Below are positions 4,132 to 59,753 of a DNA stretch of 64,000 nt, piece by piece (positions within the stretch are counted from its first letter, which is position 1; each line of letters starts with the position of its first letter). A program made the position numbers and the translations under genes. This DNA comes from Prochloron sp. SulCav_FS08_3_32_3330 (GTDB lineage: Bacteria; Cyanobacteriota; Cyanobacteriia; Cyanobacteriales; DYNF01). The notes beneath the pieces are model-generated. The model was given only the letters and a program-made list of their open reading frames with translations, made no database searches and was not told where the DNA came from. Location of the stretch: positions 1,241 to 65,240 of the forward strand of contig DYNF01000007.1 in NCBI GenBank assembly GCA_020721205.1, given 5' to 3'.

Positions 4132-4166
4132 AGAATTAAGAAAAATTATTCATTGATATTATTAGA

Positions 4167-4943: not shown

Positions 4944-4961
4944 GTTAAGACTCCTTAATAA

Positions 4962-5022
4962 AAAGTTTGTAATAGGGCTTAAGCCCTACAAAGTTTGTAA
5001 TAGGGCTTAAGCCCTACTACGA
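4962..5022. repeat. Two tandem REP-like palindromic units (TAGGGCTTAAGCCCTAC)
   Basis: 'agtttgtaatagggcttaagccctac' occurs twice. The second copy ends '...ctactacgaac', like the dispersed REP-like family. Lies between ggt and the DUF92 gene and probably also terminates transcription. Confidence 0.7.
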
Positions 5023-13803: not shown

Positions 13804-13980
13804 TTAATCGTTCGTTGTTGTGCTTTAGCACCACCTTTTAGTGCTGAAGCGCAACAACGAGCCTTTTAGCGCTGAAGCGCAACAACGAGCCTTTTAGTGC
13901 TGAAGCGCAACAACGAGCCTTTTAGCGCTGAAGCGCAACAACGAGCCTGTAGCGCTGAAGCGCAACAACGAGCCTTTTAG
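13763..13980. repeat. REP-like repeat array: 2 forward units plus 5 inverted units in 28-bp tandem
   Basis: 'gttcgttgttgtgctttagcaccac' twice, then 'ccttttagYgctgaagcgcaacaacgag' five times with a 28-bp period. Overlaps the 3' ends of both convergent genes. Confidence 0.9.
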
Positions 13981-19309: not shown

Positions 19310-19394
19310 TCTGACAAAATTTCACTGACAATATAAAATTATCTTGAACATACAGCCCTTTGCGTAACGGTTAGGTACAATTTATTTTCCCCCT

Positions 19395-19717
19395 CTCCTG
19401 TGGGCAGGGTGTTTTCATTCTCAAATTTTGTGATCTTTATAACCTTTTTCTGATCAAGTTTTTAGCTTGTTTTTGATATTAATTAGTCAAATATTATTAA
19501 AAAACCTGATCATTGTTAACAGAAATTTAGTTCAATTTATTGAACGATTTTTATTAGCAATGAAATTCATTTCATTGCGGTATCAATACTTTCAGGGATA
19601 ACTGTGTGTAATTAACCCGCTTTGAAATAGAATTTCAAAGCTAATAGCGATCGTTCAATAAATTGAACTAAGAAAACGCAATTTACCCCCGAGAATGAAA
19701 ACGCCCTGCTCCTGTGG
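19395..19717 (+). mobile_element. MITE variant A: same terminal repeats as the four-hairpin MITE, different interior
   Basis: Left terminal repeat gcagggtgttttcattc (19404-19420), right repeat gaatgaaaacgccctg (19693-19708), flanked by the 9-bp direct repeat ctcctgtgg (19395-19403 and 19709-19717). Confidence 0.8.
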
Positions 19718-20040
19718 GCAGGGCGTTTTCATTCTTTTTTTTCCAACGGGTTAAAACCCGTTGCTACCCAAACAAAACCCGTCTTCACGGGTTTCGAGAT
19801 TAAATATTAACTAATATTAAAAAAATTCAACCTGCGTAGGCAGGTTTTGCTTATGTAGCAACGGGTTTCAACCCGTTGCTTTTTGAGATCAGTTTTTTAG
19901 CTTGTTTTTGATATTAATTAATCAAAAATTATGAAAAAACGGATCAAAATTTAAAATTCAAGTCGCTTTAGCAGACTTTTGCTATTAGCTGTGAAATTTA
20001 TTTCAAAGCGGTTTTATTATTTATTCCTTTAACTTTGTTT
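19718..20040 (+). mobile_element. Four-hairpin MITE copy 2 fused to a rearranged variant-A-like tail
   Basis: The left terminal repeat starts directly after variant A's right duplication. The core ends near 19879. It is followed by a 'tttttagcttgtttttgatattaatta' module (also at 19451-19480) and an inverted copy of the 'gctttgaaat...caaagctaatagc' module. No right terminal repeat. Confidence 0.7.
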
Positions 20041-20048
20041 AATAAAAA

Positions 20049-42251: not shown

Positions 42252-42453
42252 ACGGAGTTAATCGCTGATTTACGGGATGAGCCTGTGCCTACCACATCAC
42301 CGACATAAGCCACAGGATAGCCATTTTCTTTCAATTTAGCGATGGTTTCTAAGCCTTCGGGCATTTTTGATTCTAACATCGCTAAAGCGTGTAAGGGAAT
42401 GTCCGGGCGTGTGGTAGCGTGGGGTGCTGGAGATAAATCATCGGTATTGGTTT
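42252..42453 (-). pseudogene. Internal fragment of acnB (direct repeat of 50245-50446)
   Basis: 202 bp aligning colinearly with intact acnB, with 11 mismatches and no gaps by hand alignment. No flanking acnB sequence on either side. Confidence 0.85.
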
Positions 42454-44194: not shown

Positions 44195-45067
44195 TTATAA
44201 TATTAAATAACCCCTATCTAATCCTTGTTCTAATCCTTTTTCCCAATCAGATGTTAAATGTTTTCTAACTATTTCAAATAAATGAATAACAACATCATCA
44301 TAAATTGGATTCTTAACATAACTTTCAAGATAACGAAATTCTCGATCTGTATTTTTCTGTTTTCTTAATATATAAATTTGATCAACTTTGAATTTTTGTA
44401 AATTGATTGAACTGGTTAATTTAAGCCATTCAGCAACAATAATATAAATAGCATTAGGATTGCGTAACTTTAACTGTTCTGCTGCGGTCGAAGCACCCTC
44501 TAACATGGTTTTATCTAAATAGGTTTTACATTCAATTACCACTGCTGGTAGTTGAAACTGATAAGTTTCAATTTCTTCACTACCAATACAATTAAAATCG
44601 GCTTTAATATCTGTACCAATAACAAAATCATGATCCTTTGTTTCTAATCTTACGTTAGGTTTTGTTACCATTTCTTGATAAGAACTAGGACGGAAAAATA
44701 TATCTTTAAATGTGTTTGCTTTTCCTAATAAAGCAGATTGAGATATATCATAAACTAAATCTCTAAATAAGTAAAAAATAAATTCTTCTAACACTGAAGA
44801 ATGCAAATTTGAACGAGAATCAAATTTTTCAGCATATTTTTGTTGATCTAAAAAATTTTTATAGATATTAAGTAATTTAACTCTACGTTTGATAATTTTA
44901 GTATCCTGATCTGTTGATTGTGCAAAAGCTCCTCTTAATTTCTCATTAATTCTTCTCCATTGATCATATTGTATACGAATTTCTTGAAGAAATTGCCGAG
45001 ATTCAGGATCAGTATATTTAGTTTTGTGTAATTCTTTTTGTCTTAAATTATCACCATGAACATACAT
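44195..45067 (-). CDS. Type II restriction endonuclease (specificity unknown)
   Basis: 290-aa ORF 12 bp downstream of the m5C methyltransferase gene on the same strand. PD-(D/E)XK-like 'DFVIGTD ... VVIECK'. Confidence 0.55.
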   Translation of the reverse strand: MYVHGDNLRQKELHKTKYTDPESRQFLQEIRIQYDQWRRINEKLRGAFAQSTDQDTKIIKRRVKLLNIYKNFLDQQKYAEKFDSRSNLHSSVLEEFIFYLFRDLVYDISQSALLGKANTFKDIFFRPSSYQEMVTKPNVRLETKDHDFVIGTDIKADFNCIGSEEIETYQFQLPAVVIECKTYLDKTMLEGASTAAEQLKLRNPNAIYIIVAEWLKLTSSINLQKFKVDQIYILRKQKNTDREFRYLESYVKNPIYDDVVIHLFEIVRKHLTSDWEKGLEQGLDRGYLIL

Positions 45068-45079
45068 AATTAATACCTC

Positions 45080-46279
45080 TTAAATTGATATTTGTTGTAA
45101 TAAATTTTCAGCGATCGCTTTAGCTAATAAAGGAGGAACAGCATTACCAATTTGATTATATTGACATAGGTGTTTTTCATCAAATCTTCCTTCTCTTTGT
45201 AATAATTTTTGACTAACTACTGTGGGTTTACCTTTAAAAATATACCAATCTGGAAAAGATTGGATTCTAGCACCTTCTCTAGCGGTAAAATTTCTATGTT
45301 GATAGGGATGAACAAAGTTAGCATAAAAGGAAGCAGGTATAGTATGACATGGTTTATCGGGGTGCATTCTCCTACTATTTTGATCATAAATTTTATCGGA
45401 AATTATTCCTTGATTATTTCTTTTAAATGGTTTTAAATGTTGGGGAATATTGGCTAAAGAATCACCATGAGACATTAAAGAAAAACGCTCTACTGTACGT
45501 TTAGAATGTTTCATAGCCACATGATTATAAACCGTTGGCGAACCTAAACGCATTTGTATTTGATATTCGTGATCAGAAGGTTTTGTGTAATCCATTTCTT
45601 CTGCTCCTTCTCTAGCAGAAATTTCGGGTAAATCTGCGATCGCTTCCCATAATGTAGGACATTTTTTCAACATAGTTTTAAAAATTGGTAATACTTCTGA
45701 ATCAAGATAATGGGTAGGTTGAGGAAATGGTTGTTTCAAGGGATGAATTGAACCAATAATAAATAGTCTTTTTCTAATTTGAGGAATGCCATAATCTGTT
45801 GCTTCTAAAATATCGTAATATACATAATAGCCTAATTCTTGTAAATTTTGACAAATCAGATAAATAATTAATTGATTATCGTGATTTTTAGCTTTTAATA
45901 AGTTAGGTACATTTTCAATAATTAAATATTCGGGTTTAAATAATTTAATAATTCTAATAAATTGAAAAAATAAAGAATTACGATGATCATTTGGATCACC
46001 TGCATTTTTATTACAAATTGAAAAACCTTGACAGGGAAGACCACCTAAAATAATATTAGGTGATTGATGATTAAATGTTTCTATTAAATTATCATCAGTA
46101 ATATTTTCTATTTTATCAGTAATTACTGTTGCCATTGTATGATTATAAACAAAAGTTTCTGATGCCCACTTGTCTTGTTCAATAGCACCAATAATATCAC
46201 ATCCTGCTAGTTTAAAGCCTAAACTAAAGCCTCCTGCTCCGGCAAATATATCTAAAACTTTAAGGTTGTTATTGGTCAT
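45080..46279 (-). CDS. DNA (cytosine-5)-methyltransferase
   Basis: 399 aa; motif I 'DIFAGAGGFSLGF', IV 'GGLPCQGFS', VI 'ENVPNL', VIII 'QIRKRLFIIG', X 'GNAVPPLL'. Confidence 0.92.
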   Translation of the reverse strand: MTNNNLKVLDIFAGAGGFSLGFKLAGCDIIGAIEQDKWASETFVYNHTMATVITDKIENITDDNLIETFNHQSPNIILGGLPCQGFSICNKNAGDPNDHRNSLFFQFIRIIKLFKPEYLIIENVPNLLKAKNHDNQLIIYLICQNLQELGYYVYYDILEATDYGIPQIRKRLFIIGSIHPLKQPFPQPTHYLDSEVLPIFKTMLKKCPTLWEAIADLPEISAREGAEEMDYTKPSDHEYQIQMRLGSPTVYNHVAMKHSKRTVERFSLMSHGDSLANIPQHLKPFKRNNQGIISDKIYDQNSRRMHPDKPCHTIPASFYANFVHPYQHRNFTAREGARIQSFPDWYIFKGKPTVVSQKLLQREGRFDEKHLCQYNQIGNAVPPLLAKAIAENLLQQISI

Positions 46280-46354
46280 TATTTATCAATTAATATAGGG
46301 TTAATTTTTAGATGTTTACTGTTTAATAATATTATTATAAGGCAAAAATGAATA

Positions 46355-46790
46355 TATTTAGCAGCGATCGCACCCCAATCTCCCCTACAAAGCGATCGCA
46401 CCTTAAACTCCCCTAAAAAGCGATCGCACCCCAAACTCCCCCACAAAGCGATCGCACCCCAAACTTCCCCAAAGAGCGATCGCACCTTAAACTCCCCTAC
46501 AAAGCGATCGCACCTCAAACTCCCCAAAGAGCGATCGCACCCCAAACTTCCCCAAAGAGCGATCGCACCCCAAACTTCCCCAAAGAGCGATCGCACCCCA
46601 AACTTCCCCAAAGAGCGATCGCACCTCAAACTCCCCTAAAAAGCGATCGCATATCTAACTCCCCTCAAAAAGCGATCGCACCTCAAACTCCCCTAAAAAG
46701 CGATCGCACCACCAACTCCAACAACAAGCGATCGCATCCCAAACTCCCCTAACAAGCGATCACATCTCAATCTCTCCTTACAGGAGATAA
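46355..46790 (-). repeat. 28-bp HIP1-containing minisatellite, 15 units
   Basis: GCGATCGC at 46364, 46392, 46420, 46448, 46476, 46504, 46531, 46559, 46587, 46615, 46643, 46672, 46700 and 46728, plus a degenerate gcgatcac at 46756. Unit approximately AAAGCGATCGCACCYCAAACTYCCCYAA. No unique spacers. Confidence 0.95.
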
Positions 46791-46864: not shown

Positions 46865-47887
46865 TTAGTAGAATAGCAAAGGTTTAATTCTTCTTTTTCG
46901 TTCATATAATTCTGTAATAAGCAATTCTTTATTATAATGAAATTGTCTAAGATATTCAATAAATAAATCAATAGTTGTTTCATATATAGTACCACCATTA
47001 AAATGAACATGAAAATCATCATGAATTTTATAAGTGATTGTAATTAAATTATCAATATTAGCAGCAAGATAAGGATAGTGAGATTCATCATATAAGTGAT
47101 GAACTCTTAAATTGACCTGATAACGATTATATTGATTTTTTTGAATACCAGTAACTTGACAAGTATTATTATCTCTTTTAAGAGCTTTTTCCTTCATATA
47201 ATTGATCAGATTTCTATCTGGTTGATGAGGGAGTGATTTAGTTCTTTGTTCTAAAATAGGAAGACCTATATTTAAAAATTCACTATAATAATTTTTTTGC
47301 TCTGGTATTGTTTTTGATAATTCTTGACTAAATTTAGCTAAACCAGAAAATGAATAATATCTTTGTGTTTCAATAGTACAAAAATCTTCATCAATAATTA
47401 AGCTATCTGGAGGACGAAACCTTCTTAATTTAAGAAAAAGTTGATCAAGCTGTTCTGATGTTGTTTGCAATATATTGATTGTATCAATTTTACTTAAAAA
47501 ATGACGATTATTTACTTTTGTCAGAGAAGTACAGTTTTGATTAATGACTTCTGTTACTTTATATCTTAATAATTGTTGTTCTTTTTTTGTTATTAATTGA
47601 TTAATAAAATTTTTATTTTTATCGCCAATCAGAGCTACAAAATCTTGAATTTCGGAATCAGAAATTAGACCTCTAGTATCAAGATAATTAGCGATGATAA
47701 AAGCACCTTGTTTTGAAAACAATTTTTCTTGATATGTCTTGTTACAAATTCTAAAATGATCATTTTCAGTCAATTTATTATTTGAAATAAGTTGTTTTAT
47801 TATTGCAGTTAATTGATCTCTTTGTATATATAGAGATTTTGCAATTTCTTCTTCATCAAATAAAAAAGTTGTATTATCAATATACAT
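46865..47887 (-). CDS. HNH-endonuclease-domain protein with unassigned N-terminal region
   Basis: 340 aa; C-terminal 'CQVTGIQ...LRVHHLYDESHYPYLAANIDNLITITYKIHDDFH' HNH motif. GGAGG lies 11 nt upstream of the ATG, inside the end of the J-domain gene. Confidence 0.7.
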   Translation of the reverse strand: MYIDNTTFLFDEEEIAKSLYIQRDQLTAIIKQLISNNKLTENDHFRICNKTYQEKLFSKQGAFIIANYLDTRGLISDSEIQDFVALIGDKNKNFINQLITKKEQQLLRYKVTEVINQNCTSLTKVNNRHFLSKIDTINILQTTSEQLDQLFLKLRRFRPPDSLIIDEDFCTIETQRYYSFSGLAKFSQELSKTIPEQKNYYSEFLNIGLPILEQRTKSLPHQPDRNLINYMKEKALKRDNNTCQVTGIQKNQYNRYQVNLRVHHLYDESHYPYLAANIDNLITITYKIHDDFHVHFNGGTIYETTIDLFIEYLRQFHYNKELLITELYERKRRIKPLLFY

Positions 47888-48386: not shown

Positions 48387-50975
48387 CTACACCAAAACAT
48401 CCTCAAACTTAGGCATTTTCTCCACAGGAATTACCCGCCCGAAATCCTCAAAACCCGCAATCTCATCAAAATTGAGATAACGGTATAAATCACCCTTAAA
48501 CGGGTCAACTTTTTGAGCCACAATACTCATATATTCCTCAACAGTAGGAATCTTACCTAATAACGCACATACCGCCGCCAACTCCGCACTACCGAGATAC
48601 ACCCTTGCACCCTTACCCATGCGATTATTAAAATTACGGGTAGAAGTAGAGAAAACAGTAGCATTATCCTCAACTCTTGCCTGATTTCCCATACAGAGGG
48701 AACATCCGGGCATTTCTGTCCTTGCACCCGAAGCTACAAAGATATCATAAACCCCTTCCTCTTGTAACATTTGTTCATCCATGCGGGTGGGTGGACATAT
48801 CCATAAACGCCCTTTAACCGTACCTGCACCCTCAAGAATCTTAGCCGCAGCCCGATAATGTCCGATATTGGTCATACATGAACCAATAAACACCTCATCT
48901 ACCTTGTCTCCGGCACATTCGCTCATTAATTTTACATTATCAGGGTCATTGGGTGCGGCGACAATGGGTTCTTTTATCTCACTTAAGTTTACCTCAATGG
49001 TATCCACATATTCTGCATCCGCATCGGCAGACATTAAACTCGGATTTTGCAACCATGCTTCCATTTTGGCAATACGGCGTAACAAGGTACGAGCATCTTG
49101 ATATCCCCTTGCGATCATATTTTTCATTAAGACGATATTAGAACGCAAGTATTCCGCTACAGTCTCCTCACTGAGTTTAATGGTACTACCAGAACAACTA
49201 CGCTCTGCTGTAGCATCGGTTAATTCAAAAGCCTGTTCTACCTTTAAATCGGGTAATCCTTCCATTTCCATAATGCGACCATTGAAAACATTGATTTTGT
49301 TCTCTTTGCCGTAGGTAAGTTTACCCTGTTGCATGGCTACCCAGGGAATAGCGTTAACGATATCTCGTAATGTTACCCCTGGTTGTAATTCCCCTGTAAA
49401 CTTGACTAAGACCGATTCTGGCATATCTAAAGGCATTACCCCTAAAGCCGCCGCAAAAGCGACTAAACCTGAACCTGCGGGAAATGATATTCCTAAAGGG
49501 AAACGGGTATGAGAGTCGCCCCCTGTACCCACTGTATCGGGTAATAACATCCGATTTAACCAAGAGTGAATGATACCATCTCCCGGACGTAAAGCCACTC
49601 CCCCTCTCGTTGAGAAAAAGTCGGGTAATGATTTGTGGGTTTTGATGTCAACGGGTTTGGGGTAAGCGGCGGTATGACAGAAGGTTTGTAAGGTTAAATC
49701 AGCATTGAAACCTAAACAGGCTAACTCTTTTAACTCGTCTCTGGTCATAGGTCCTGTGGTATCCTGAGAGCCTACGGTGGTCATTATCGGTTCGCAGGAT
49801 GTACCCGGACGAATACCAGTAACTCCACAGGCTTTACCTACCATTTTCTGAGCTAACGTATAGCCTTTACCCGTGTCTTCTGGAGGTATAGGACGTACAA
49901 ATAGGGTAGAAGTCTCTAATCCTAAAGCATGACGGGCTTTATCGGTTAAGGTGCGTCCAATTAAAAGAGGAATACGTCCACCCGCACGAACTTCATCTAA
50001 AATCGTATCGGGTTTGAGGGTAAAGGTGGTAATGGTTTCGCCGTTTTGATTGGTAATCTTACCCAGATAGGGGTGTATTGTGATTACATCACCCGTATTC
50101 AGTTGAGTTACATCGCATTCTATGGGTAATGCGCCTGAATCTTCGGCAGTATTAAAGAAAATGGGAGCGATTTTCCCCCCTAGAATGTAACCACCTGCCC
50201 GTTTATTGGGTACAAAGGGAATATCGTTACCAATATGCCATAATACGGAGTTAATCGCTGATTTACGGGATGAGCCTGTGCCTACCACATCACCGACATA
50301 AGCCACAGGATAGCCGTTTTCTTTCAATTTGGCGATGGTTTCTATGCCTTCGGGCATTTTTGACTCTAACATCGCTAAGGCGTGTAAGGGTATATCGGGG
50401 CGGGTGGTGGCGTGGGGTGCTGGGGATAAATCATCGGTATTGGTTTCCCCTGGCACTTTAAACACGGTGACGGTGATTTCTTTGGCAACTTTCGGTTTAC
50501 TGATAAACCATGCACCGTTAGCCCAAGCATCCATCACCTGTTTAGCGTAGGGGTTGGTATCGCATCCATGCAATACATCGTTAAACGCATCAAAGACTAA
50601 CAGGGTTTTACTTAGTGCGATCGCTGCTTCTGAAGCAATATTACTATCTTGAGACTTGAGCAGTTCGATCAGGGATTGCACATTATAGCCTCCCATCATT
50701 GTACCGAGTAAGTCCACCGCACCTTGAGGACTGATCAAAGGACATTTAATTTCACCTTTAGCAACACCTGTTAAAAATCCGGCTTTGACGTAGGCGGCTT
50801 CGTCAACTCCGGGGGGTATGCGATCCCTGAGTAACATCATCAGGGTTTCGGCTTCGCCTTCGGGGGGATTTTTCAGTAACTCGCACAGTTGGGAGGTTTG
50901 TTCGGCATTGAGGGGTAAGGGGGGAATGCCTAATTTTGCCCGTTCTTCGGCGTGTTTCCGGTATTCTTGTAACAT
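48387..50975 (-). CDS. acnB: Aconitate hydratase B (bifunctional aconitase 2 / 2-methylisocitrate dehydratase)
   Basis: 862 aa; N-terminal '[22 protein letters not shown]', typical of AcnB; Fe-S ligand regions 'IGSCMTN' and '[12 protein letters not shown]'. Confidence 0.93.
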
Positions 50976-51114
50976 TTGGGTTGGTTCTCCTATATTTGTT
51001 TGTTTTCTGTTATTGTATTGTAAAGGAATTGTTACAAGAGTTACTGGTAAACGGATTGATCAGAAAAGATGATTTATAGATTATGATCAAGAATAGAATC
51101 TTTATTTTAGGTAG

Positions 51115-51336
51115 GTGACTATGGTTACAAAACAAATAGTTCAAGAAAAATTAGACAATTTAACAGAAGAACAACTTAATCAAGTTTATGGAATCATTGA
51201 ACAATTAAGTAACGTAGAAAAACCTGTTAAAAAGCCTAGTTTAATGTCTCAATTACAGGAAATTTCTATTGATGCTCCTGAAGATTTCTCTGTTCAAATG
51301 GCTATTCGTTTTGGGAGAGATGTCAGTGAGGACTAA
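51115..51336 (+). CDS. Putative VapB-type antitoxin
   Basis: About 71-73 aa, overlapping the PIN gene start by 17 nt. 'LDNLTEEQLNQVYGIIEQL' is an antitoxin-like helix. Confidence 0.5.
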   Translation: MTMVTKQIVQEKLDNLTEEQLNQVYGIIEQLSNVEKPVKKPSLMSQLQEISIDAPEDFSVQMAIRFGRDVSED

Positions 51337-51730
51337 AATTTTTGTTGATACTTGGTTTATTGTTGCTTTAATTAATAAGCGAGATCAATATCATTCAAAA
51401 GCTTTACAATTAGCTAAACAATTTGAAAAGTATCCTTTAATTACAACAGATGCAATTTTCTTAGAAGTTGGTAATGCTTTATCAAGTAATTACAAAAATG
51501 AAGCAGTAGAATTAATAGAAAGATTTTTAGCATCTGATGAAGCTGAAGTTATCCGTTTAACTCCTAAATTATTTGATGAAGCGTTAAGCTTATATAAAAA
51601 ACATCAAGATAAATCTTGGGGTTTAGTTGACTGTGTTTCTTTTGTGGTAATGAAACAAAATAATATTACTCAAGCATTAACTTTTGATAAACATTTTATT
51701 CAAGCTGGTTTTCAAGCATTGATGAAATGA
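51320..51730 (+). CDS. vapC: PIN-domain toxin VapC
   Basis: In-frame ATG at 51320 (MSVRTKIFVDTWF...); 'FVDT', 'TTDAIFLEV', 'LVDCVSF', 'LTFDKHF' give the PIN acidic residues. Confidence 0.75.
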   Translation: MSVRTKIFVDTWFIVALINKRDQYHSKALQLAKQFEKYPLITTDAIFLEVGNALSSNYKNEAVELIERFLASDEAEVIRLTPKLFDEALSLYKKHQDKSWGLVDCVSFVVMKQNNITQALTFDKHFIQAGFQALMK

Positions 51731-51765
51731 TTTTTCATTTTTTAATTTTTTTAAGGAGGTTTATT

Positions 51766-52629
51766 ATGGCTTGGTCAAGAGGCTATAGATTAAATAATGG
51801 TAAATATACCATTAGTCAAGTATTAGGTGAAGGTGGTTTTGGAATTAGCTATCTTGCTACAGATTATCAGGGAAAAAATGTGGTAATTAAAACTTGTAAT
51901 GATAGTGTTAGACGAGAGCCAAATTTTGCGAAATTTCAACAAGATTTTGTCAATGAAGCTCTTAGACTAAGAGGATGTCAGCATCCTCATATTGTTCAAG
52001 TTTATGAGTTAATTCAAGAAGGTTCATTGTGGTGTATGGTTATGGAGTATATATCAGGTAAAAGTTTGTGGGATTCAGTTAAAAGTTCTGGATATTTAAC
52101 AGAAGGAGAAGCGTTAATAAATATTCAGTTTATTGGAGAAGCCCTTAAAGTTGTGCATCGAAATGGTTTATTACATCGAGATTTAAACCCTAAAAATATT
52201 ATGATAGACCGATTATTTGGAGCAACATTAATTGATTTTGGTTTAGCTCGTGAATTTGTCACTAATCGAACTAAAACTCATACGGTAGCTGCTTTTCCTG
52301 GATTTGCTCCTATTGAACAGTATGGTACAAGAAATAAACGAGGAGCTTATACTGATGTTTATGGTTTAGCCGCCTCATCCTACTACGCTTTAACAGGTCA
52401 AATTCCTACATCTGCTCCTGATCGAGTTTCAGGAATTAGATTAGAGTCACCACAATGGTTAAATCCACAGATTAGTAATCGGATCAATCAAGCTATTTTA
52501 GATGGTATGGAATTATATCCAGAAAATCGTCCTCAATCAGTGCAGGAATGGTTAAATGGTTTGACAAACAGTCCTCCTCCGGTTGATTTTAAGCAATTTG
52601 CAAATCTCGTTGATCCTCAAGGGTTTTAG
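51766..52629 (+). CDS. Stand-alone Hanks-type Ser/Thr protein kinase (catalytic domain only)
   Basis: AAGGAGG lies 8 nt upstream of the ATG at 51766. 'GEGGFGISYLA' G-loop, 'VVIKT', 'HRDLNPKNIM', 'DFGLA', 'APIEQ'. No sensor or repeat domain. Confidence 0.85.
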   Translation: MAWSRGYRLNNGKYTISQVLGEGGFGISYLATDYQGKNVVIKTCNDSVRREPNFAKFQQDFVNEALRLRGCQHPHIVQVYELIQEGSLWCMVMEYISGKSLWDSVKSSGYLTEGEALINIQFIGEALKVVHRNGLLHRDLNPKNIMIDRLFGATLIDFGLAREFVTNRTKTHTVAAFPGFAPIEQYGTRNKRGAYTDVYGLAASSYYALTGQIPTSAPDRVSGIRLESPQWLNPQISNRINQAILDGMELYPENRPQSVQEWLNGLTNSPPPVDFKQFANLVDPQGF

Positions 52630-52772
52630 AGGAGTTTTGAGGTGCGATCGCTTTGGTAAGGGAGTTTTGAGGTGCGATCGCTTTTTAAGGGAGTTTGAAG
52701 TGCGATCGCTCTTTAGGGTAGTTTGAGGTGCGATCGCTTTTAGTGGTAGTTTGGGGTGCGATCGCTTTTAAG
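52630..52772 (+). repeat. Cluster of 5 units of the 28-bp HIP1 repeat (GGGAGTTTGAGGTGCGATCGCTTTT)
   Basis: HIP1 at 52644, 52674, 52702, 52730 and 52758. Starts at the kinase stop codon. Reverse-complement orientation relative to the 46.3-46.8 kb array. Confidence 0.9.
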
Positions 52773-52835
52773 GACAAATCAGTAATTATAGATTATGATT
52801 ATAATAGTTTATTGTTAATTTTGAGGAATTTACTA

Positions 52836-53111
52836 ATGATTACAGTTAATCAAAATCTAAATAATAATGACCTTTTAGCATTAGTTAAAAAAGTCGAAAC
52901 TGAAGGCGAAAGAATCATTATTGAAACGGAAAATAAAGGAAAAGTCGCTATTATTAATTATGCAGATTTGCAACAATTAGAAGATGCTAGAGATTGTGCA
53001 GAATTACGTCAAGCTATAGCAGAAAGTAGTGGTGAATTTTATACACTTGATCAAGTTTTAGCTGAAAGAGGTTTAACTTTAGAAGATATTATGAGTGAGG
53101 AAGATGAGTAA
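52836..53111 (+). CDS. Phd/YefM-like antitoxin
   Basis: In-frame ATG at 52836 (MITVNQNL...). The upstream part of the track ORF is repeat-encoded. 'GKVAIINYADLQQLEDARD' resembles a Phd/YefM core. Confidence 0.55.
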   Translation: MITVNQNLNNNDLLALVKKVETEGERIIIETENKGKVAIINYADLQQLEDARDCAELRQAIAESSGEFYTLDQVLAERGLTLEDIMSEEDE

Positions 53112-53373
53112 AGTATATTTATTATTGGTGGAGAAATCAGTTTTAAAAACTTTAAATGATCTTCCTCTTAAGCAGTATAAGCAAGTGACAATGAAATTAT
53201 TTTCACTGCAAAGAAATCCTTTTCCTCAAGATTCTAAAAAGTTAAAAGGTTTTGAGGACAGTTATCGAGTAGATCAAGGTGAATATCGAATTTTATACAC
53301 GGTTGAGGATGATAAAATTAGGGTGTTTAAAACTGGTAAACGTAATGATGATGAAGTTTATCAAAATTTGTAA
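53095..53373 (+). CDS. RelE/ParE-family toxin
   Basis: 92 aa, overlaps the antitoxin stop; 'SYRVDQGEYRILYTVEDDKIRVFKTGKR'. Confidence 0.7.
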   Translation: MRKMSKVYLLLVEKSVLKTLNDLPLKQYKQVTMKLFSLQRNPFPQDSKKLKGFEDSYRVDQGEYRILYTVEDDKIRVFKTGKRNDDEVYQNL

Positions 53374-53382
53374 ATTGATTAT

Positions 53383-53453
53383 GGTGTGATCTCTTTTAAG
53401 CGGAGTTTAAAGGGTGATCGCTTTGTGGGAGTTAGCGGTGCGATCGCTTTTTA
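53383..53453 (+). repeat. About 3 degenerate units of the 28-bp repeat
   Basis: tggtgtgatctcttttaag / cggagtttaaagggtgatcgctttgt / gggagttagcggtgcgatcgcttttta. Confidence 0.7.
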
Positions 53454-53469
53454 TGAATTATAATGTTAA

Positions 53470-53566
53470 CTAGAATCTTTATTTTAGGTAGATGACTATG
53501 GTAACTACAAATAATTCAAGAAAAATTAGACAATTTAACATTCGTTTTGGGAGAGGTGTTACTTAA
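53470..53566 (+). pseudogene. Internally deleted copy of the 51115-51336 antitoxin cassette head
   Basis: 'tagaatctttattttaggtagatgactatggtaac...aaaaattagacaatttaaca' matches 51094-51163 and joins directly to 'ttcgttttgggagag', which matches 51306-51320. About 140 bp are missing. Confidence 0.65.
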
Positions 53567-53571
53567 AAATA

Positions 53572-53841
53572 ATGACTGGTATTAATTATCCTATTGAATT
53601 AGATATAAAACACATCGCCAAACATTTACCTAATACTCCTCAAATGAGACGACTTTTAAGAAAAGGACTTTCAGCACATATTTTTAAAGATATTGAAACT
53701 TTAGAAAGAGTTACTCAAGCTATTATTGAAAGAGGAGAATATACAGGTAAAATAAGAAAATATGAACGATATGGTTTATATTTTAGTGACGTAATTGGTT
53801 ATAGAATTGATCCTGATGGCACACAATTAAACCTTTATTAG
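53572..53841 (+). CDS. Hypothetical 89-aa protein (toxin-like, unassigned)
   Basis: ORF beginning 5 nt after the remnant's stop. No motif recognised. First gene of a tight two-gene module. Confidence 0.35.
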   Translation: MTGINYPIELDIKHIAKHLPNTPQMRRLLRKGLSAHIFKDIETLERVTQAIIERGEYTGKIRKYERYGLYFSDVIGYRIDPDGTQLNLY

Positions 53842-53857
53842 GTCGAAATGAAAATCA

Positions 53858-54130
53858 ATGACAGCAACAAATATCATGTTATCCCTAGAACAAGCCCAAG
53901 TAGAGAATAATTGGCAATTTACAGAGGTTTGGATTGATCCGATGTTAACACCTCCTTATCTACTTTTATTATTAGTTGATAGTGAAGGAAAATGTCATAT
54001 TTATGATCCTGCTAAAGATTATCAAGTAATATTTTCTAGTAATGATTATGAAACAGCTAAATTATGGTTATTAGAGGATGAATATGAACCAATTGAGGGT
54101 AGATTATCTTTAGATGAATTGCTTGTTTGA
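53858..54130 (+). CDS. Hypothetical 90-aa acidic protein (immunity/antitoxin-like, unassigned)
   Basis: ORF 16 nt downstream of 53572-53841. Acidic ('LLEDEYEPIEGRLSLDELL'). No motif recognised. Confidence 0.35.
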   Translation: MTATNIMLSLEQAQVENNWQFTEVWIDPMLTPPYLLLLLVDSEGKCHIYDPAKDYQVIFSSNDYETAKLWLLEDEYEPIEGRLSLDELLV

Positions 54131-54243
54131 AGGGTGGTTTGAGGTGCGATCTCTTTGATGGGGGTTTAAGGCGCGATCTCTTTTGTAAGGGAGTTAGTGA
54201 TGAGATCGCTTGTTGGGGAGTTTAAGATGCGATCTCTTTTAAC
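54131..54243 (+). repeat. 4 units of the 28-bp repeat (gcgatctc variant)
   Basis: gggtggtttgaggtgcgatctc / ggggtttaaggcgcgatctc / gggagttagtgatgagatcgc / gggagtttaagatgcgatctc. Confidence 0.8.
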
Positions 54244-54306
54244 CACAAATTGGTAATTATAGATTATGATCGCATTAGTTCATTCTTGATATTGAGGAAA
54301 TTACTA

Positions 54307-54597
54307 ATGATTACAGTTAATCAAAATCTAAATAATAATGACCTTTTAGCATTAGTTAAAAAAGTCGAAACTGAAGGCGAAAGAATCATTATTGAAACGG
54401 AAAATAAGGGAAAAGTAGCTCTTATTAATTATCAAGATTTACAATTGTTAGAAGATTTAGAAGATGCTAGAGATTGTGCTGAATTACGTCAAGCAATAGA
54501 AGAAAGTAAGGGGCAACCTAGTATTACCTTTAATGAGTTATTAGACGAATTAGGTTTAACAATTGAAGATTTAACATCTGGAGATGAAAATGAGTAA
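54307..54597 (+). CDS. Phd/YefM-like antitoxin (paralog of 52836-53111)
   Basis: The first ~40 codons are identical at the protein level to 52836-53111. The C-terminus diverges, with an extra 'LEDLED'. Confidence 0.55.
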   Translation: MITVNQNLNNNDLLALVKKVETEGERIIIETENKGKVALINYQDLQLLEDLEDARDCAELRQAIEESKGQPSITFNELLDELGLTIEDLTSGDENE

Positions 54598-54859
54598 AGA
54601 ATATTCTTTAATTATTGAACATTCGGCTAGAAAAAGTTTAAAAAATCTTCAACCCAAATTTATAAAACAGATTGTTTTTAAGATATTTACTTTACAAGAT
54701 AATCCTTTTCCTCAAGACTCTACAAAATTAAAGGGTTTTGAGGACAGTTATCGAGTAGATCAAGGTGAATATCGTATTTTATATACCGTTGAGGATGATA
54801 AAATTAGGGTATTTAAAATTGGTAAACGTAATGATGACGAAGTTTATCAAAATTTATAA
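54584..54859 (+). CDS. RelE/ParE-family toxin (paralog of 53095-53373)
   Basis: The C-terminal ~45 aa are nearly identical to 53095-53373 ('NPFPQDS.KLKGFEDSYRVDQGEYRILYTVEDDKIRVFK.GKRNDDEVYQNL'). The N-terminal third diverges. Confidence 0.7.
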   Translation: MKMSKEYSLIIEHSARKSLKNLQPKFIKQIVFKIFTLQDNPFPQDSTKLKGFEDSYRVDQGEYRILYTVEDDKIRVFKIGKRNDDEVYQNL

Positions 54860-54861
54860 GT

Positions 54862-54948
54862 AGGGTAGTTTGGGATGCGATCTCTTTTTGAAGGGAGATT
54901 GAGGTGCGATCTCTTGTTAGGTGGATTGAGGTGCGATCTCTTTTAATG
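54862..54948 (+). repeat. 3 units of the 28-bp repeat (gcgatctc variant)
   Basis: gggtagtttgggatgcgatctc / gggagattgaggtgcgatctc / gtggattgaggtgcgatctc. Confidence 0.8.
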
Positions 54949-55025
54949 ATAATTGCTATTATTGATAGCTTGTTGTTATAATCAAATTGATCGCTTTTTA
55001 TTAAAGTATCAAGGAAAATAAACTT

Positions 55026-55277
55026 ATGACTATTACTATTAATCTGCGTCCAGAAATAGAAACACAACTAACCGAAAAAGCAACAAAACAAGGTAAAGAT
55101 ATTTCAGAAATTGTAACTGAAATTATTACAAATGCGATAGAATTAGAATTACAAGATTATCAAGAAACTATCAAAGGGATTGCTAAAGGATTAGAAGATT
55201 TTGAAACAGGTAATTTTCGTTCTTTTGAAGATTTTACTAATGAACAATGTCGTAAATATAATTTATCTTTAGAATAA
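55026..55277 (+). CDS. RHH/ParD-like antitoxin
   Basis: 83 aa; 'MTITINLRPEIETQL' beta-strand start and 'GLEDFETGNFRSFEDF' tail, typical of antitoxins paired with ParE/RelE. Confidence 0.55.
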   Translation: MTITINLRPEIETQLTEKATKQGKDISEIVTEIITNAIELELQDYQETIKGIAKGLEDFETGNFRSFEDFTNEQCRKYNLSLE

Positions 55278-55345
55278 TGAAATATAAAATAGAAATCTCT
55301 AGTTTAGCAGAATCTGAAGCAGTTAAAGCTTTTTTATCGCTTTAA
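55277..55345 (+). pseudogene. Truncated ParE/RelE toxin gene (22 codons)
   Basis: The ATG overlaps the antitoxin stop (TAATG). 'MKYKIEISSLAESEAVKAFLSL*' is the usual ParE N-terminus cut short 4 bp before the oppositely oriented vapC. Confidence 0.6.
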
Positions 55346-55349
55346 TATT

Positions 55350-55754
55350 TTATAAATCAGGCTTTTTAACAGTTGAATTAGATAAATTTTGAGATTTTCT
55401 AATAAATTTCTCATCAAAAGTATAAAATTCTAAACAATGATTACTAGAAGCTAAATGAAAAGCATCTGCAAAATCTACACCTTTTTCATGCCATTCAATC
55501 ACTTGTAAAATCAACCTTTCATCAGTTAAATAAACATTAGGTAATCCAAAAACTTTTCTCAAAGCTTGACCAATTTCTACAGGTTTAAATTTATAAGCAA
55601 AACGTAATACCCATTCAGTTTCTAAGATAACAGTCTCAGCAATAAAAATATTTTTATTTTCAAACAATCTTAAGCTTTGCTGATATTGTAGTTTATCATC
55701 TTGAGTAATTAATCTAACAAGAATATTAGTATCAATAGCAATTATTGATTCCAT
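55350..55754 (-). CDS. vapC: PIN-domain toxin VapC
   Basis: 134 aa; 'IIAIDTNILVRL', 'ETVILETEWVL', 'DFADAFHL', 'YTFDEKF'. Confidence 0.8.
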   Translation of the reverse strand: MESIIAIDTNILVRLITQDDKLQYQQSLRLFENKNIFIAETVILETEWVLRFAYKFKPVEIGQALRKVFGLPNVYLTDERLILQVIEWHEKGVDFADAFHLASSNHCLEFYTFDEKFIRKSQNLSNSTVKKPDL

Positions 55755-55999
55755 GATTTTTCTATTCCCTGAGCAATAGCTTGATCCATTTCTTCAATTG
55801 TTTTTGCTTTTCCTTGATACTTCAAACACCCTGCAACATCAGCTAATTTAGTTTCAGGAAAAACTTTTTTAGGCTTTAATAAAATACCATCACCAAAATT
55901 AATTATAATTAATTCTTGACCATCTTCCCAATGAAACTGATCCCTTAAGATTTTGGGAATAGTAACTTGACCTTGACTTGATAATTTAGTAATTTCCAT
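55742..55999 (-). CDS. vapB: AbrB/MazE/SpoVT-family antitoxin (VapB)
   Basis: 85 aa; 'KLSSQGQVTIPKILRDQF' looped-hinge-helix motif; overlaps the vapC start by 13 nt. Confidence 0.75.
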   Translation of the reverse strand: MEITKLSSQGQVTIPKILRDQFHWEDGQELIIINFGDGILLKPKKVFPETKLADVAGCLKYQGKAKTIEEMDQAIAQGIEKSWNQ

Positions 56000-56092
56000 T
56001 GATAAATATTACTTCTATTTTTTCTATCTAAGTCTAACATAAATTACTGTCTGTGTAAAACTGATCACTGTGCGATCGCTTGTTTATATTAA

Positions 56093-56377
56093 TTATTCGT
56101 AAACTTTACTTCGATGAGCAATTAAAATTATTGTCACCAGAATTAAATTATCATTAATTTCATAAACAACTCGATAATCACCAACTCGATAACGATAATA
56201 ACCAGAATATTCACCTTTTAAAGGTTTAATATTTGGATGATAACGAGGATTGATTTTCAATTGTTCAAAACAACGATCTAATTTCTTTTGTAAAGAAGCA
56301 GGAGATGCTTCAAAAAACTTCTGAGCATCAACTTCAATAACAATATGATAATTAATATTTTCGCTTGAGTTGCTCAA
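56093..56377 (-). CDS. RelE/ParE-family toxin
   Basis: 94 aa; 'GYYRYRVGDYRVVYEINDNLILVTIILIAHRSKVY'. Confidence 0.7.
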   Translation of the reverse strand: MSNSSENINYHIVIEVDAQKFFEASPASLQKKLDRCFEQLKINPRYHPNIKPLKGEYSGYYRYRVGDYRVVYEINDNLILVTIILIAHRSKVYE

Positions 56378-56582
56378 CAGGTATCACCTTCCCTTGTTCA
56401 ACATTTTGCTTGGCTTTTTCAAAAGACTCTTTGAAACCATTAATTTTTAATAATTCTTCAGTGGGATCATCTTCCTCTTTTTCAGCTAAATAAGCCAAAA
56501 AATCTACTGCAACTAAAAGCTTTTGTGTTGATAGTTGCTCAACATAATCTTGAATTTGACTACGAAGTTGTATTGCGTCCAT
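56352..56582 (-). CDS. Putative antitoxin of the adjacent RelE/ParE toxin
   Basis: 76-aa ORF upstream of, and overlapping, the toxin gene. Helical, with an acidic middle. Confidence 0.5.
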   Translation of the reverse strand: MDAIQLRSQIQDYVEQLSTQKLLVAVDFLAYLAEKEEDDPTEELLKINGFKESFEKAKQNVEQGKVIPVEQLKRKY

Positions 56583-56651
56583 AAAAATAGCATTAACACA
56601 ATTAATTTATGTAAAAGTATAACATTTTTTTTGTTTTTTGACTAAAAAACT

Positions 56652-56748
56652 ATGCGATCGCTTGGTAGGGGAGTTGGTGGTGCGATCGCTCTTTGGTGGA
56701 GTTTGAGGTGCGATCGCTTGGTAGGGGAGTTGGTGGTGCGATCATTTA
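56652..56748 (+). repeat. 4 units of the 28-bp HIP1 repeat
   Basis: ctatgcgatcgc / ggggagttggtggtgcgatcgc / ggtggagtttgaggtgcgatcgc / ggggagttggtggtgcgatca. The last two overlap the 5' end of the BrnT ORF. Confidence 0.85.
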
Positions 56749-57001
56749 TGATAAAGTTATTTTATTATTATCAAAACATGGTATTTCATTTGAAGAAGCT
56801 CAAACTGTTTTTGATGATCCGTTATATGTAGATTTTTATGATCCTGACCACTCAGAAGATGAAGATCGTTATATTATTGTAGGAGAATCATCAAACAGTC
56901 GTGTTTTGTTAGTCTCTTATACGGAAAGATGCGATAAAATTAGACTTATTAGTGCAAGACAAGTTACCAAACAAGAATTAATTGCTTATCAGGAGGGTTA
57001 A
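56693..57001 (+). CDS. brnT: BrnT-family (DUF497) toxin
   Basis: 'KHGISFEEAQTVFDDPL...DRYIIVGESSNSRVLLVSYTERCDKIRLISARQVTKQE'. The only in-frame starts (TTG/GTG) lie within the repeat cluster. Confidence 0.7.
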   Translation: MVEFEVRSLGRGVGGAIIYDKVILLLSKHGISFEEAQTVFDDPLYVDFYDPDHSEDEDRYIIVGESSNSRVLLVSYTERCDKIRLISARQVTKQELIAYQEG

Positions 57002-57005
57002 AACA

Positions 57006-57209
57006 ATGGAAGATCAACTTAGAGATGAATATGATTTAAAAACTTTAAAAGTCAGGAAAATGGGAGCTAAACGTAAGAAATTTGGTGATAATATTATTAA
57101 ATTAGATTCAGATGTTGCTGAAGTTTTTTCTAGTGCTGAATCTGTTAATTCTGCTTTAAGATTTTTAATTAAAATTACTAAAGAAAATAAAGATCAAGCT
57201 ATATTTTAA
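57006..57209 (+). CDS. brnA: BrnA-family antitoxin
   Basis: In-frame ATG at 57006 (MEDQLRDEYDLKTLKVRKMG...), 5 nt after the brnT stop. The 'EYD...K' start and C-terminal RHH-like 'VNSALRFLI' are typical. Confidence 0.6.
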   Translation: MEDQLRDEYDLKTLKVRKMGAKRKKFGDNIIKLDSDVAEVFSSAESVNSALRFLIKITKENKDQAIF

Positions 57210-57210
57210 T

Positions 57211-57260
57211 TATGATCGCTTGTTTGGGAGATTGGAGTGTGATCGCTTTTAATAATATTG
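57211..57260 (+). repeat. 2 degenerate units of the 28-bp repeat (right edge of the TA island)
   Basis: ttatgatcgcttgtt / tgggagattggagtgtgatcgctttta. Confidence 0.6.
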
Positions 57261-57391: not shown

Positions 57392-58123
57392 ATGAAAATT
57401 CATCAATTGCAAAGAATTGTGATTAAGCCTGAACAAATACAGGAAAATAAGATTATTTTTACCTCGGATCAAGAGCATTATATTTATCGAGTTTTACGGT
57501 TAAAAGAAGGGAATCAAATTATTGTGATGGATGGCAAAGAAAAAGCATGGTTAGTCAATATTGAAAAAGAATCTAATCTAATTGTAAAACCTTTTGTCCA
57601 AAAAACTGAATTACCTGTTAATATTACTTTAATTTGTGCTTTACCAAAGGGTAATAATTTTGAGGAAATTGTGCGCTGTTGTACGGAGTTAGGTGTTAAT
57701 TCTATTATACCTGTAATTAGTGCAAGAACTTTACTTAAACCCGGTGAAAATAAAGTACAAAGATGGCGTAAAATTGCTTTAGAATCTGCTGAACAATCGG
57801 AACGTCAATTAGTTCCTAGTATAACGGATCCTTTACCTTTTGTTGATATTTTTAAGCACATAAATTTAGATCATAGTAATAATTATATTTGTGTGGCAAG
57901 GGGGGAAAATCCTCATTTGTTATCCTCTTTACAAAAGCAATCTTCACAAGATATCATAATTATGACAGGTACAGAAGGAGGCTGGACTGATTCAGAAATT
58001 GACACAGCAATTAAATTAAATTTTCAACCTATTTCCCTCGGAAAACGTATTTTAAGGGCTGTTACTGCACCGATTATGGCTTTATCCTTAATTTCTAGTT
58101 ATTATGAAATAAAAAAAATTTAG
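57392..58123 (+). CDS. rsmE: 16S rRNA (uracil1498-N3)-methyltransferase
   Basis: 243 aa; 'HYIYRVLRLKEGNQI' PUA-like N-terminus, 'KWRKIALESAEQSER', 'GTEGGW...E'. Confidence 0.85.
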   Translation: MKIHQLQRIVIKPEQIQENKIIFTSDQEHYIYRVLRLKEGNQIIVMDGKEKAWLVNIEKESNLIVKPFVQKTELPVNITLICALPKGNNFEEIVRCCTELGVNSIIPVISARTLLKPGENKVQRWRKIALESAEQSERQLVPSITDPLPFVDIFKHINLDHSNNYICVARGENPHLLSSLQKQSSQDIIIMTGTEGGWTDSEIDTAIKLNFQPISLGKRILRAVTAPIMALSLISSYYEIKKI

Positions 58124-59421: not shown

Positions 59422-59621
59422 CCCTACGCCGAAAAGTGTTTTCATTCTTTTTTTTCAACGGGTTAAAACCCGTTGCTACCCAAACAAAACCCGTCTTTAC
59501 GGGTTTTCTAATTAAATATTAACTAATATTAAAAAAATTCAACCTGCGTATGCCTGTTTTGCTTATGTAGCAACGGGTTTCAACCTGTTGCTTTTTGGAG
59601 AATGAAAACACCCTACGCCGG
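59422..59621 (+). mobile_element. Four-hairpin MITE copy 5 (degenerate), inserted inside a REP-like cluster
   Basis: Terminal repeats gtgttttcattc / gaatgaaaacac; 'cctacgccg' on both sides (59422-59430, 59612-59620). Hairpin 3 is broken (cctgcgtatgcctg). Confidence 0.8.
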
Positions 59622-59702
59622 AAAGGGCTGAAGCCCAACAACAAACCGGAAAGGGCTGAAGCCCAACTACAAACCGGAAAGGGCTGAAGCCCAACTACAA
59701 AC
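59619..59702. repeat. 3 tandem 28-bp REP-like units (ccggaaagggctgaagcccaacWacaaa)
   Basis: Three consecutive units. They form an inverted pair with ggttcgttgttgggctttagccctac at 59402-59427. Confidence 0.85.
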
Positions 59703-59753
59703 CTGATTATTTTTCTCTTAAAATTGTTTTAATTAATAACAAATAACGAATAA

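Follow-up and report, generated by a model that had tools for sequence, protein, structure and literature searches.

HIP1-Cored Repeat Arrays at the Joints of a Cyanobacterial Toxin-Antitoxin and Defence Island: A Candidate for Module Shuffling by Short-Homology Recombination

Introduction

No motif is more over-represented in cyanobacterial genomes than the octamer HIP1 (GCGATCGC), whose function is a matter of debate, recent work pointing to transformation and Chi-like recombination. The closest described element, a small repeat of about 21 nt called SDR5, is known from Nostocaceae (Elhai et al., 2008); according to later papers it is inserted between nucleotides 3 and 4 of HIP1 (PMC4390886), and SDR-like repeats are cited there as absent outside Nostocaceae (PMC4390886, PMC5861425). 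In Synechococcus PCC 7002, transformation and integration were raised by HIP1 in or near homology arms; the gain in integration was up to 7-fold, or over 100-fold with methylation, an effect termed “reminiscent of Chi” by its authors (Kamoku & Nielsen, bioRxiv 10.1101/2024.09.10.611283). A HIP1-flanked deletion of smtB has also been cited, and HIP1 has been linked phylum-wide to DNA-uptake genes (10.64898/2026.06.24.733823). Separately, type II toxin-antitoxin (TA) genes are clustered with restriction-modification (R-M) and defence genes on pSYSA, pSYSG and chromosomal islands of Synechocystis, and close strains differ by insertions or deletions of TA loci (PMC4963859). Here we describe a 64,000-nt stretch of the Prochloron sp. 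SulCav_FS08_3_32_3330 assembly (contig DYNF01000007.1, positions 1,241 to 65,240; “the window” hereafter), in which arrays of a 28-bp HIP1-cored repeat separate the modules of a TA and defence island. On balance we think it probable that these modules are shuffled by short-homology recombination at the HIP1-cored minisatellites, which are akin to SDR5 repeats; the recombination pathway, the role of transformation and methylation and any selection for tandem expansion itself are what we infer. Defence islands and HIP1-associated small repeats are already known, and what appears to be new is the position of HIP1 arrays at TA/defence junctions; three papers that cite SDR5 (PMC4390886, PMC5861425, 10.64898/2026.06.24.733823) make no mention of a link to TA or defence cassettes or to strain breakpoints.

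Arrays of a HIP1-Cored Repeat Between the Modules

Eight compact modules occupy the 6.2 kb that separates acnB (48387-50975, minus strand) from rsmE (57392-58123), as had been claimed in a first-pass annotation made from the sequence letters, most of whose gene labels were upheld by domain searches (Pfam, NCBIfam and PADLOC). The spacers between these modules are almost wholly taken up by arrays of a 28-bp unit with the consensus TAGGGGAGTTTGAGGTGCGATCGCTTTT, that is, the HIP1 palindrome and 20 further nucleotides, rich in G and T. Mapping by TRF and by a position weight matrix calibrated on shuffles located 33 units in the 64 kb plus one weak outlier, 18 of them in the island and 15 at 46.36-46.79 kb, and the island clusters fell within a few bases of their first-pass positions. 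Elsewhere in the window no unit scored, despite 23 further HIP1 sites, some of them intergenic, and the repeat 25-mer was matched in none of the window shuffles. With 200 bp of array as query, PLSDB plasmids gave no match. Arrays and cassettes follow each other along the window in this order:

46360-46790, minus: the 46-kb array, 15 units and one degenerate unit
51060-52629, plus: cassette 1, with leader, VapB-like gene, PIN toxin and Ser/Thr kinase
51075-51087, plus: cassette 1 leader box TATAGATTATGAT
51121-51336, plus: cassette 1 VapB-like gene, 71 aa, without Pfam match, overlapping the PIN gene
51320-51730, plus: cassette 1 PIN toxin
51766-52629, plus: cassette 1 Ser/Thr kinase, PADLOC PD-T4-6 over its full length (E 6.5e-48)
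52628-52772, plus: array A1, 5 units (52628-52769), beginning right at the kinase stop codon
52773-53373, plus: cassette 2, with its own leader (box 52787-52799), Phd 52836-53111 and RelE/ParE 53104-53373
53383-53453, plus: array A2, degenerate, 2 units (53398-53451) and a leading core
53454-54130, plus: cassette 3, with vapB leader/gene remnant, DUF6972 gene and 90-aa open reading frame (ORF)
53454-53566, plus: cassette 3 vapB remnant, a copy of the cassette 1 leader and vapB with a 139-bp internal deletion
53572-53841, plus: cassette 3 DUF6972 gene
53858-54130, plus: cassette 3 90-aa ORF
54130-54243, plus: array A3, 4 units (54130-54240), core mostly the variant GCGATCTC
54244-54859, plus: cassette 4, paralogue of cassette 2, with promoter region, Phd 54307-54597 and RelE 54590-54859
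54861-54948, plus: array A4, 3 units (54861-54944), all with core GCGATCTC
55026-55346, plus: cassette 5, with RelB-like antitoxin 55026-55277 (weak NCBIfam match) and 22-codon putative toxin stub 55278-55346
55350-55999, minus: cassette 6, inverted, with PIN 55350-55754 and MazE/AbrB antitoxin 55742-55999
56068-56082, plus: A5, a single HIP1 core (56072) with T-rich tail
56093-56582, minus: cassette 7, inverted, with RelE/ParE 56093-56377 and 76-aa antitoxin 56352-56582
56652-56749, plus: array A6, leading core at 56654 and 3 units (56666-56749), with a 56-bp higher-order repeat
56708-57209, plus: cassette 8, with 5'-truncated brnT and 67-aa brnA-like gene 57006-57209 (without Pfam match)
57211-57260, plus: array A7, leading partial core and 1 unit (57223-57250), directly after the brnA stop codon

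At least one core stands at seven of the nine island junctions, in keeping with the claim that most carry the repeat; the junction of acnB with cassette 1 has none, and that of cassettes 5 and 6 no clear one, with a possible degenerate core (ATCGCTTTAA) at the end of cassette 5. The arrays mostly open and close with a core, n units having n+1 cores, and their edges often show partial cores, with ATGATCGC at the left edge and GCGATCA at the right one. The gap to the adjoining stop codon is 0-10 nt, and about 11% of the island is array sequence. Enrichment beside TA and defence genes, which the first-pass annotation had proposed as a genome-wide check, was borne out in the window: the repeat occupies 8/17 gaps adjoining such genes versus 0/32 other gaps (p = 5e-5, with gaps clustered and not independent). 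Its remark that all clusters point the same way applies to 51-57 kb and no further; the 46-kb array, absent from that annotation, has the opposite orientation, and in the 19 foreign loci described below array orientation is unrelated to that of the genes.

The 46-kb array lies between a C5-methyltransferase/Bpu10I-like restriction enzyme pair (44195-46279) and a 340-aa ORF (46865-47887) without Pfam, NCBIfam or PADLOC match. Regular runs capable of G-quadruplex formation are found in this array and in none of the island arrays, and we set a G-quadruplex role aside. The arrays also give rise to spurious ORFs rich in CDR, AIA and RSL motifs (46279-46629, 52583-52726, 56652-56831 and many foreign loci), some of which are called as genes in public annotation, e.g., an 82-aa one in contig L127 and a 127-aa one in contig L001. 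Assemblers and annotators should therefore be wary of such “CDR/AIA” ORFs and of contigs, which are prone to break in the arrays.

Three other tandem families with a 28-bp period and different sequences were seen in the window (13834-13981, 59618-59703 and 4962-5017), each centred on a small hairpin (GCGCTGAAGCGC, GGGCTGAAGCCC and GGGCTTAAGCCC); their period is that of the HIP1 unit.

Strain Breakpoints and Array Turnover

The source lineage, which is uncultured and of low GC content, is represented by a metagenome-assembled genome (MAG; GCA_973786425.1), the JGI metagenome 3300000236 and two Logan runs, all with the cassettes in the order of the window. In three short metagenome contigs of 1.5-2.2 kb from closely related genomes, L125, L136 and L137, other modules adjoin cassettes 4, 7 and 8, and the shared cassettes are 94-99% identical. 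In L125 (RsmE 98%), the stretch that runs from A6 through brnTA and rsmE matches the window at about 99% identity; leftwards the contig is unrelated, and a copy of a dispersed repeat found at 19.4-19.9 kb of the window lies to the left of its array. L136 runs TA-x, array, cassette 4 (99.2%), one unit, TA-y (a ParE-like pair), array, cassette 7, and L137 runs relE (94.8% to cassette 4), one unit, vapB with a truncated vapC (94.4% to cassette 1), array, cassette 7 (99.3%). A base-by-base reading places each of the about six breakpoints, at which homology gives way to non-homology, on a GCGATCGC core, A5 being the left homology breakpoint of cassette 7 in both L136 and L137, and A6 that with L125. 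Breakpoints inside the repeat clusters are what the first-pass annotation would have had such a system show, and since the arrays occupy so small a part of the island, chance placement on cores is very unlikely.

The longest exact string common to different arrays is 12-22 bp, which is below usual final assembly k-mers. The segments of L136 and L137 are also unequally diverged (94-99%), and their cassette 7 alleles differ, so that the two contigs come from distinct genomes. On these grounds chimeric assembly is unlikely, and the arrangements of L125, L136 and L137 are probably those of real genomes. Content thus varies between strains with the junctions at the repeat, as seen in short contigs.

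The arrays themselves vary by whole units, even between near-identical assemblies. A6 is shorter by 56 bp (two units, or one higher-order repeat) in MAG contig L001, and the 46-kb array, which contains three consecutive identical units, is one unit (28 bp) shorter in JGI contig L127; the position of A5 holds three cores in L136. The core variant GCGATCTC, which abolishes HIP1 as well as the CGATCG methylation site, is found in 6/7 units of the two arrays flanking cassette 4 versus 1/27 elsewhere (p = 3.5e-5), whereas the L136 arrays around a 99%-identical cassette 4 retain GCGATCGC cores. The pattern suggests that the arrays turn over rapidly and that exchange takes place between arrays across a cassette.

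Further differences between strains were observed outside the island. The intergenic region after ftsQ (19310-20048) is repeat-rich: besides hairpin repeats it holds the dispersed element of L125 twice. MAG contigs (L128 17667-22160; L130 1-3800) part from the window after ftsQ, where they have MinCDE and the window a UvrD-like helicase, and once more near 37.3 kb, where COX2/HigB take the place of Uma2/HisKA, which indicates either further strain rearrangements or MAG mis-joins.

Content and History of the Modules

Two small adjoining or overlapping genes with a known toxin domain, the usual layout of a type II TA system, are found in cassettes 1 and 6 (PIN), 2, 4 and 7 (ParE/RelE) and 8 (BrnT), and the antitoxins beside recognised toxins include Phd or MazE. 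The DUF6972 pair of cassette 3 and cassette 5 are putative TA modules. Cassette 5 had been labelled ParD plus truncated ParE; its layout of antitoxin plus stub stood, the antitoxin match is weak and RelB-like, and ParE is only a candidate identity. From 42.4 to 57.2 kb the region has the make-up of a defence island, with the PD-T4-6-like kinase, a type II methyltransferase and Bpu10I-like restriction enzyme, and eleven TA-type two-gene modules. In GC content the island is not distinct from the neighbouring non-conserved genes. PD-T4-6 is a single-gene anti-phage kinase family, and the kinase of cassette 1, which adjoins a VapBC pair, matches it over the full length; in cassette 1 a TA addiction pair may therefore accompany a defence gene.

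Cassettes 2 and 4 are mosaic paralogues. Their leader and the 5' part of phd are identical and the 3' half of relE is near-identical, with about 60% identity (52836-53373 against 54307-54859) across the Phd C-terminus and RelE N-terminus, the presumed toxin-antitoxin interface. Such a pattern would be expected of diversification at that interface, or of a recombinant mosaic. Because cassettes 2 and 4 are paralogous, and because cassette 3 opens with the deleted copy of the cassette 1 leader and vapB, the succession of cassettes 1-2 and 3-4 fits a putative segmental duplication of a block made up of cassette 1, array, cassette 2 and array. An undeleted layout of relE, unit and vapB, comparable to the start of cassette 3, is present in L137. 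In cassette 8 the 5' end of brnT, including the start codon, was lost through a deletion of about 56 bp, and the ORF of the window now starts inside array A6. This loss (56740-56775) is common to the window, L001 and L003, and the gene is intact in L125 (170-260, MKFEWDKQ...); the brnT of the window is possibly a pseudogene or has a chimeric N-terminus.

Beside the block that holds the 46-kb array, 202 bp from the interior of acnB (aa 177-244) recur at 42252-42453 on the minus strand, with 94.5% identity to 50245-50446. This fragment is flanked by GH116 and a PIN TA pair, lies about 6 kb beyond the 3' end of the complete gene at 48387, and suggests an old rearrangement or duplication that may have brought the TA/R-M block beside acnB. 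At the other end of the window, two TA pairs without arrays were seen at 2238-4166 (PemK with a 64-aa partner; DUF433 with DUF5615), together with a 53-bp tandem repeat at 2990-3105; MAG and JGI contigs show a 285-bp difference in the spacer that separates the pairs (L128/L129 940-1720).

The Phd/RelE Cassette in Other Genera

The RelE of cassette 4 has homologues of 87-90% identity in Crocosphaera sp. XPORK-15E, Aphanothece sacrum and Geminocystis sp. GBBB08, and at the DNA level the cassettes are about 85-90% identical; the housekeeping RsmE reaches only 55% identity outside its own small clade. The DNA homology, which is also seen in contig L141, takes in about 65 nt before the phd start and runs as far as the relE stop codon. 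In the window its left limit lies 0-2 nt past A3, and on the right it ends with the stop codon, 1 nt short of A4. These comparisons show a cassette that has been shared horizontally, without the repeats.

The same homology explains a motif that the first-pass annotation had tentatively taken for a portable -10 region. The 13-mer TATAGATTATGAT has exactly three copies in the window, all within the island, two of which are accounted for by the paralogy of cassettes 2 and 4. The leader “ACAAAT..TAAT.ATAGATTATGAT” lies within the upstream homology of the cassette 4 relatives, and since it is conserved in Geminocystis and L141, the “tatagattatgat” box is part of the predicted promoter region of the Phd/RelE cassette itself and lies outside the repeat system. 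The notion of a portable box shared by the cassettes was thus abandoned.

Similar Arrays in Other Cyanobacteria

A scan with AGTTTRRGGTGCGATCGC of GTDB species representatives, which do not include the source species, returned 106 loci, nearly all of them single chance-like matches, which we reused as controls, and a metagenome scan with a two-unit pattern returned 14 loci, none from the source sample. The clearest counterpart was found in Anabaena azotica SJ-1 (L049, NZ_CP178454.1 5720001-5728000, at 900-5000), where four arrays of a 25-30-bp HIP1 unit alternate with HicAB, array, BrnTA, arrays, Phd/ParE, array and an MrcB_N-HNH gene in this order, and two Uma2-family genes flank the block. 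The same architecture thus stands in a complete Nostocales genome, which would make a good experimental model. In Planktothrix PCC 11201 arrays adjoin a PIN pair and an IS630 transposase, and in metagenome contig L120 about 1 kb of arrays surrounds a DUF3800 gene and a HerA-like/methyltransferase system.

Over 19 foreign loci, TA domains (Phd, PIN, XisH, XisI, BrnT, HicA, HicB, ParE and Unstab_antitox) were found in 11 of the 37 ORFs that lie within 400 bp of arrays, and domains of defence or mobile elements (MrcB_N, SMEK_N, DUF3800, RVT_1, DUF87, NucS_C, DO-GTPase and DDE_3) in another 8/37. Beside single-copy matches of the unit at 84 HIP1-rich control loci, TA domains were found in 3/141 ORFs (Fisher's exact test, p = 2e-6 for TA and 9e-11 for TA plus defence). 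Arrays and neighbouring genes were co-oriented in 12 cases and anti-oriented in 12.

How the Arrays Might Act

In the reading that we favour, each module would be self-contained and horizontally mobile, with its own promoter and genes. The arrays would be unstable, gaining and losing units by slippage or unequal exchange, and insertion, deletion, duplication or replacement of modules would take place at their HIP1 cores, which would serve as joints. The homology would be as short as about 12-22 bp, shared from array to array in the chromosome or with incoming DNA in natural transformation. Two routes can be imagined: short-homology or RecA-mediated exchange between directly oriented arrays, which would give duplication, deletion and re-insertion of circles, or replacement by transforming DNA. 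The outcome would be a function like that of an integron platform, with a repeat that belongs to the host locus and no dedicated integrase. The arrays at the joints of exchangeable defence and TA modules provide in-genome evidence tying HIP1 to gene flux. A bolder version, which we offer tentatively as a possibility, holds that HIP1 arrays are dedicated recombination or uptake joints, by which an integrase-free cassette platform captures, shuffles and discards TA and anti-phage modules in several cyanobacterial orders (that of the source lineage, Nostocales and Oscillatoriales). If this is true, HIP1, a puzzle for 30 years, would have a concrete part in organising the flexible genome. On the practical side, such arrays could act as high-efficiency landing pads in cyanobacterial engineering.

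Several points weigh against recombination at the arrays. Assembly chimeras would give the same pattern of breakpoints, and the alternative orders come from three short metagenome contigs with no spanning long read. The nearest relative with a long contig (L124, RsmE 74%) has FtsW upstream of rsmE and lacks both island and synteny, so that gain and loss at the acnB-rsmE interval is untraceable beyond the species. With at most 22 bp of exact homology between them, the arrays offer a marginal substrate for RecA-dependent recombination, and the published experiments on HIP1 and recombination concern single sites, not tandem arrays. In Crocosphaera, Aphanothece, Geminocystis and L141, the Phd/RelE pair stands alone between unrelated housekeeping genes without a HIP1 array, and the arrays are therefore dispensable for acquisition of the cassette. 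Arrays are also lacking from five further TA pairs of the source genome: the window holds four of these, at about 2.3-4.1 and 42.4-44.1 kb, and the fifth is a HigB pair on L130. Finally, the enrichment near foreign arrays over controls comes from a small sample in which neighbouring ORFs are not independent within loci.

The main rival explanation, which we judge unlikely without dismissing it, takes the arrays for passive minisatellites: selfish or neutral expansions of HIP1 sites, SDR5-like or by slippage, that mark junctions and promote no exchange. TA and defence islands would be weakly constrained DNA, and the co-location would therefore be a by-product. The n units with n+1 cores are what expanding single sites would leave, copy number does vary by whole units, foreign arrays are oriented irrespective of the genes, and the array-less Phd/RelE cassettes and TA pairs just mentioned sit well with such passivity. 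It does not, however, explain why about six strain breakpoints should all fall on cores when the arrays cover so little of the island, nor why the other 23 HIP1 sites of the window, intergenic ones included, are unexpanded, and the derived core common to both arrays around cassette 4 implies exchange across the cassette. The arrays could also be transcription insulators, in which paired GCGATCGC cores (an 8-bp stem) and a T-run would terminate read-through between autoregulated TA operons. That 6/8 window arrays start 0-10 nt past a co-oriented stop codon (the 46-kb array about 75 nt), that adjacent cores fold with z-scores of -3.5 to -6.5, and that one unit is flagged as terminator-like would all suit this idea, but loops of 20 nt make poor intrinsic terminators and a terminator scan found no excess (2 against 1.9 expected). 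Orientation relative to upstream genes is moreover random in the 19 foreign loci, and the arrays beside the inverted cassettes 6 and 7 point the wrong way, all of which makes insulation quite improbable.

We are equally doubtful, if not slightly more so, about a site-specific system, in which a trans-acting recombinase or nuclease specific for HIP1 or GATC and encoded elsewhere joins the cores, a true integron analogue. It would account for breakpoints on the core itself and not at arbitrary positions of the unit, for the partial cores at array edges, and for the reportedly precise insertion point of SDR5 within HIP1 (PMC4390886). Short-homology recombination, however, equally predicts breakpoints at the most conserved 8-11 bp, and no recombinase, transposase or RAYT-like gene was found in the 64 kb or beside most foreign arrays. 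An HNH nuclease was considered as the partner of the arrays and rejected, since the HNH-type ORFs upstream of the two largest arrays, one in the window and one in Anabaena, show no relationship. Effectively refuted is an RNA-based element, either type III antitoxin-like repeats or a degenerate CRISPR: tandem repeats of about 28 nt beside toxin genes are superficially like ToxI or CRISPR repeats, but the same unit flanks unrelated toxin families and an R-M system, and neither spacers, cas genes, ToxN/AbiQ-type toxins nor an Rfam match were found.

Comparison With Known Systems

Of the systems with short tandem or dispersed repeats, CRISPR arrays are excluded because here the period of 28 equals the unit length and leaves no spacers, and type III TA systems of the ToxIN kind because the neighbours are type II pairs or R-M genes. 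The REP/BIME elements of enterobacteria are species-specific hairpins of 20-40 nt that alternate in orientation and are linked to RAYT transposases. Like them, the repeats here are palindromic, short, variable in copy number and clustered in intergenic DNA just after stop codons; unlike them, they are direct tandem units with a palindrome of only 8 bp, and no RAYT was seen in the 64-kb window.

The description of SDR5 is compatible with the arrays here, which have the form of a core followed by n repetitions of 20 nt and a core, as repeated insertion at HIP1 would give, and which have similar counterparts in Anabaena azotica. The taxonomic range is unlike that stated for SDR repeats, as the source lineage has an RsmE only 55% identical to that of Nostocales and Planktothrix PCC 11201 also has such arrays. 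The octamer is the same as in the experiments of Kamoku & Nielsen, which used single or few sites in engineered plasmids, not natural tandem arrays or cassettes. From the TA islands of Synechocystis the locus differs in its repeat, as no module-delimiting repeat is described for them and the term “HIP1” is absent from PMC4963859.

Parallels may also be seen in non-cyanobacterial systems of cassette exchange. In the minimal mobile elements of Neisseria, alternative cassettes between conserved genes are swapped by transformation and homologous recombination, with no dedicated recombinase. Short over-represented uptake or recombination motifs stand at the cassette junctions in both cases. The homology is provided there by the flanking genes, whereas here it is proposed to lie in the arrays, and several cassettes are stacked per locus.

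The first-pass annotation had likened the cassettes to an integron. What stands of this is a set of exchangeable modules delimited by a repeat; the assignment to integrons is rejected, as no recombinase was found in the 64 kb and the repeats fold unlike attC. Its own provisos, that no recombinase was in view and that the repeats are not attC-like, proved sound: neither integrase, transposase nor other recombinase was found in extra scans or in the Pfam-annotated gene calls, which span most of the window, a few ORFs having no Pfam match, and in single-stranded folds of five arrays only adjacent 8-bp GCGATCGC cores pair, with 20-nt loops and no extended bipartite palindrome. The attC site of integrons is an imperfect palindrome of 60-140 nt that moves together with the cassette and recombines in the form of a folded single strand of DNA; the repeat here is a tandem 28-bp unit with a palindrome of 8 bp only, which is not part of the cassette and stays with the host locus. 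IntI, attI and Pc are absent, and the cassettes, two of them inverted, bring their own promoters. That said, the likeness to chromosomal integrons and the superintegrons of Vibrio extends to a row of small exchangeable cassettes at a fixed locus, many of them TA modules, to a repeat in one orientation, and to a cassette content that differs between close strains. If the arrays do act as joints, this locus would exemplify integron-like modular exchange without a site-specific recombinase.

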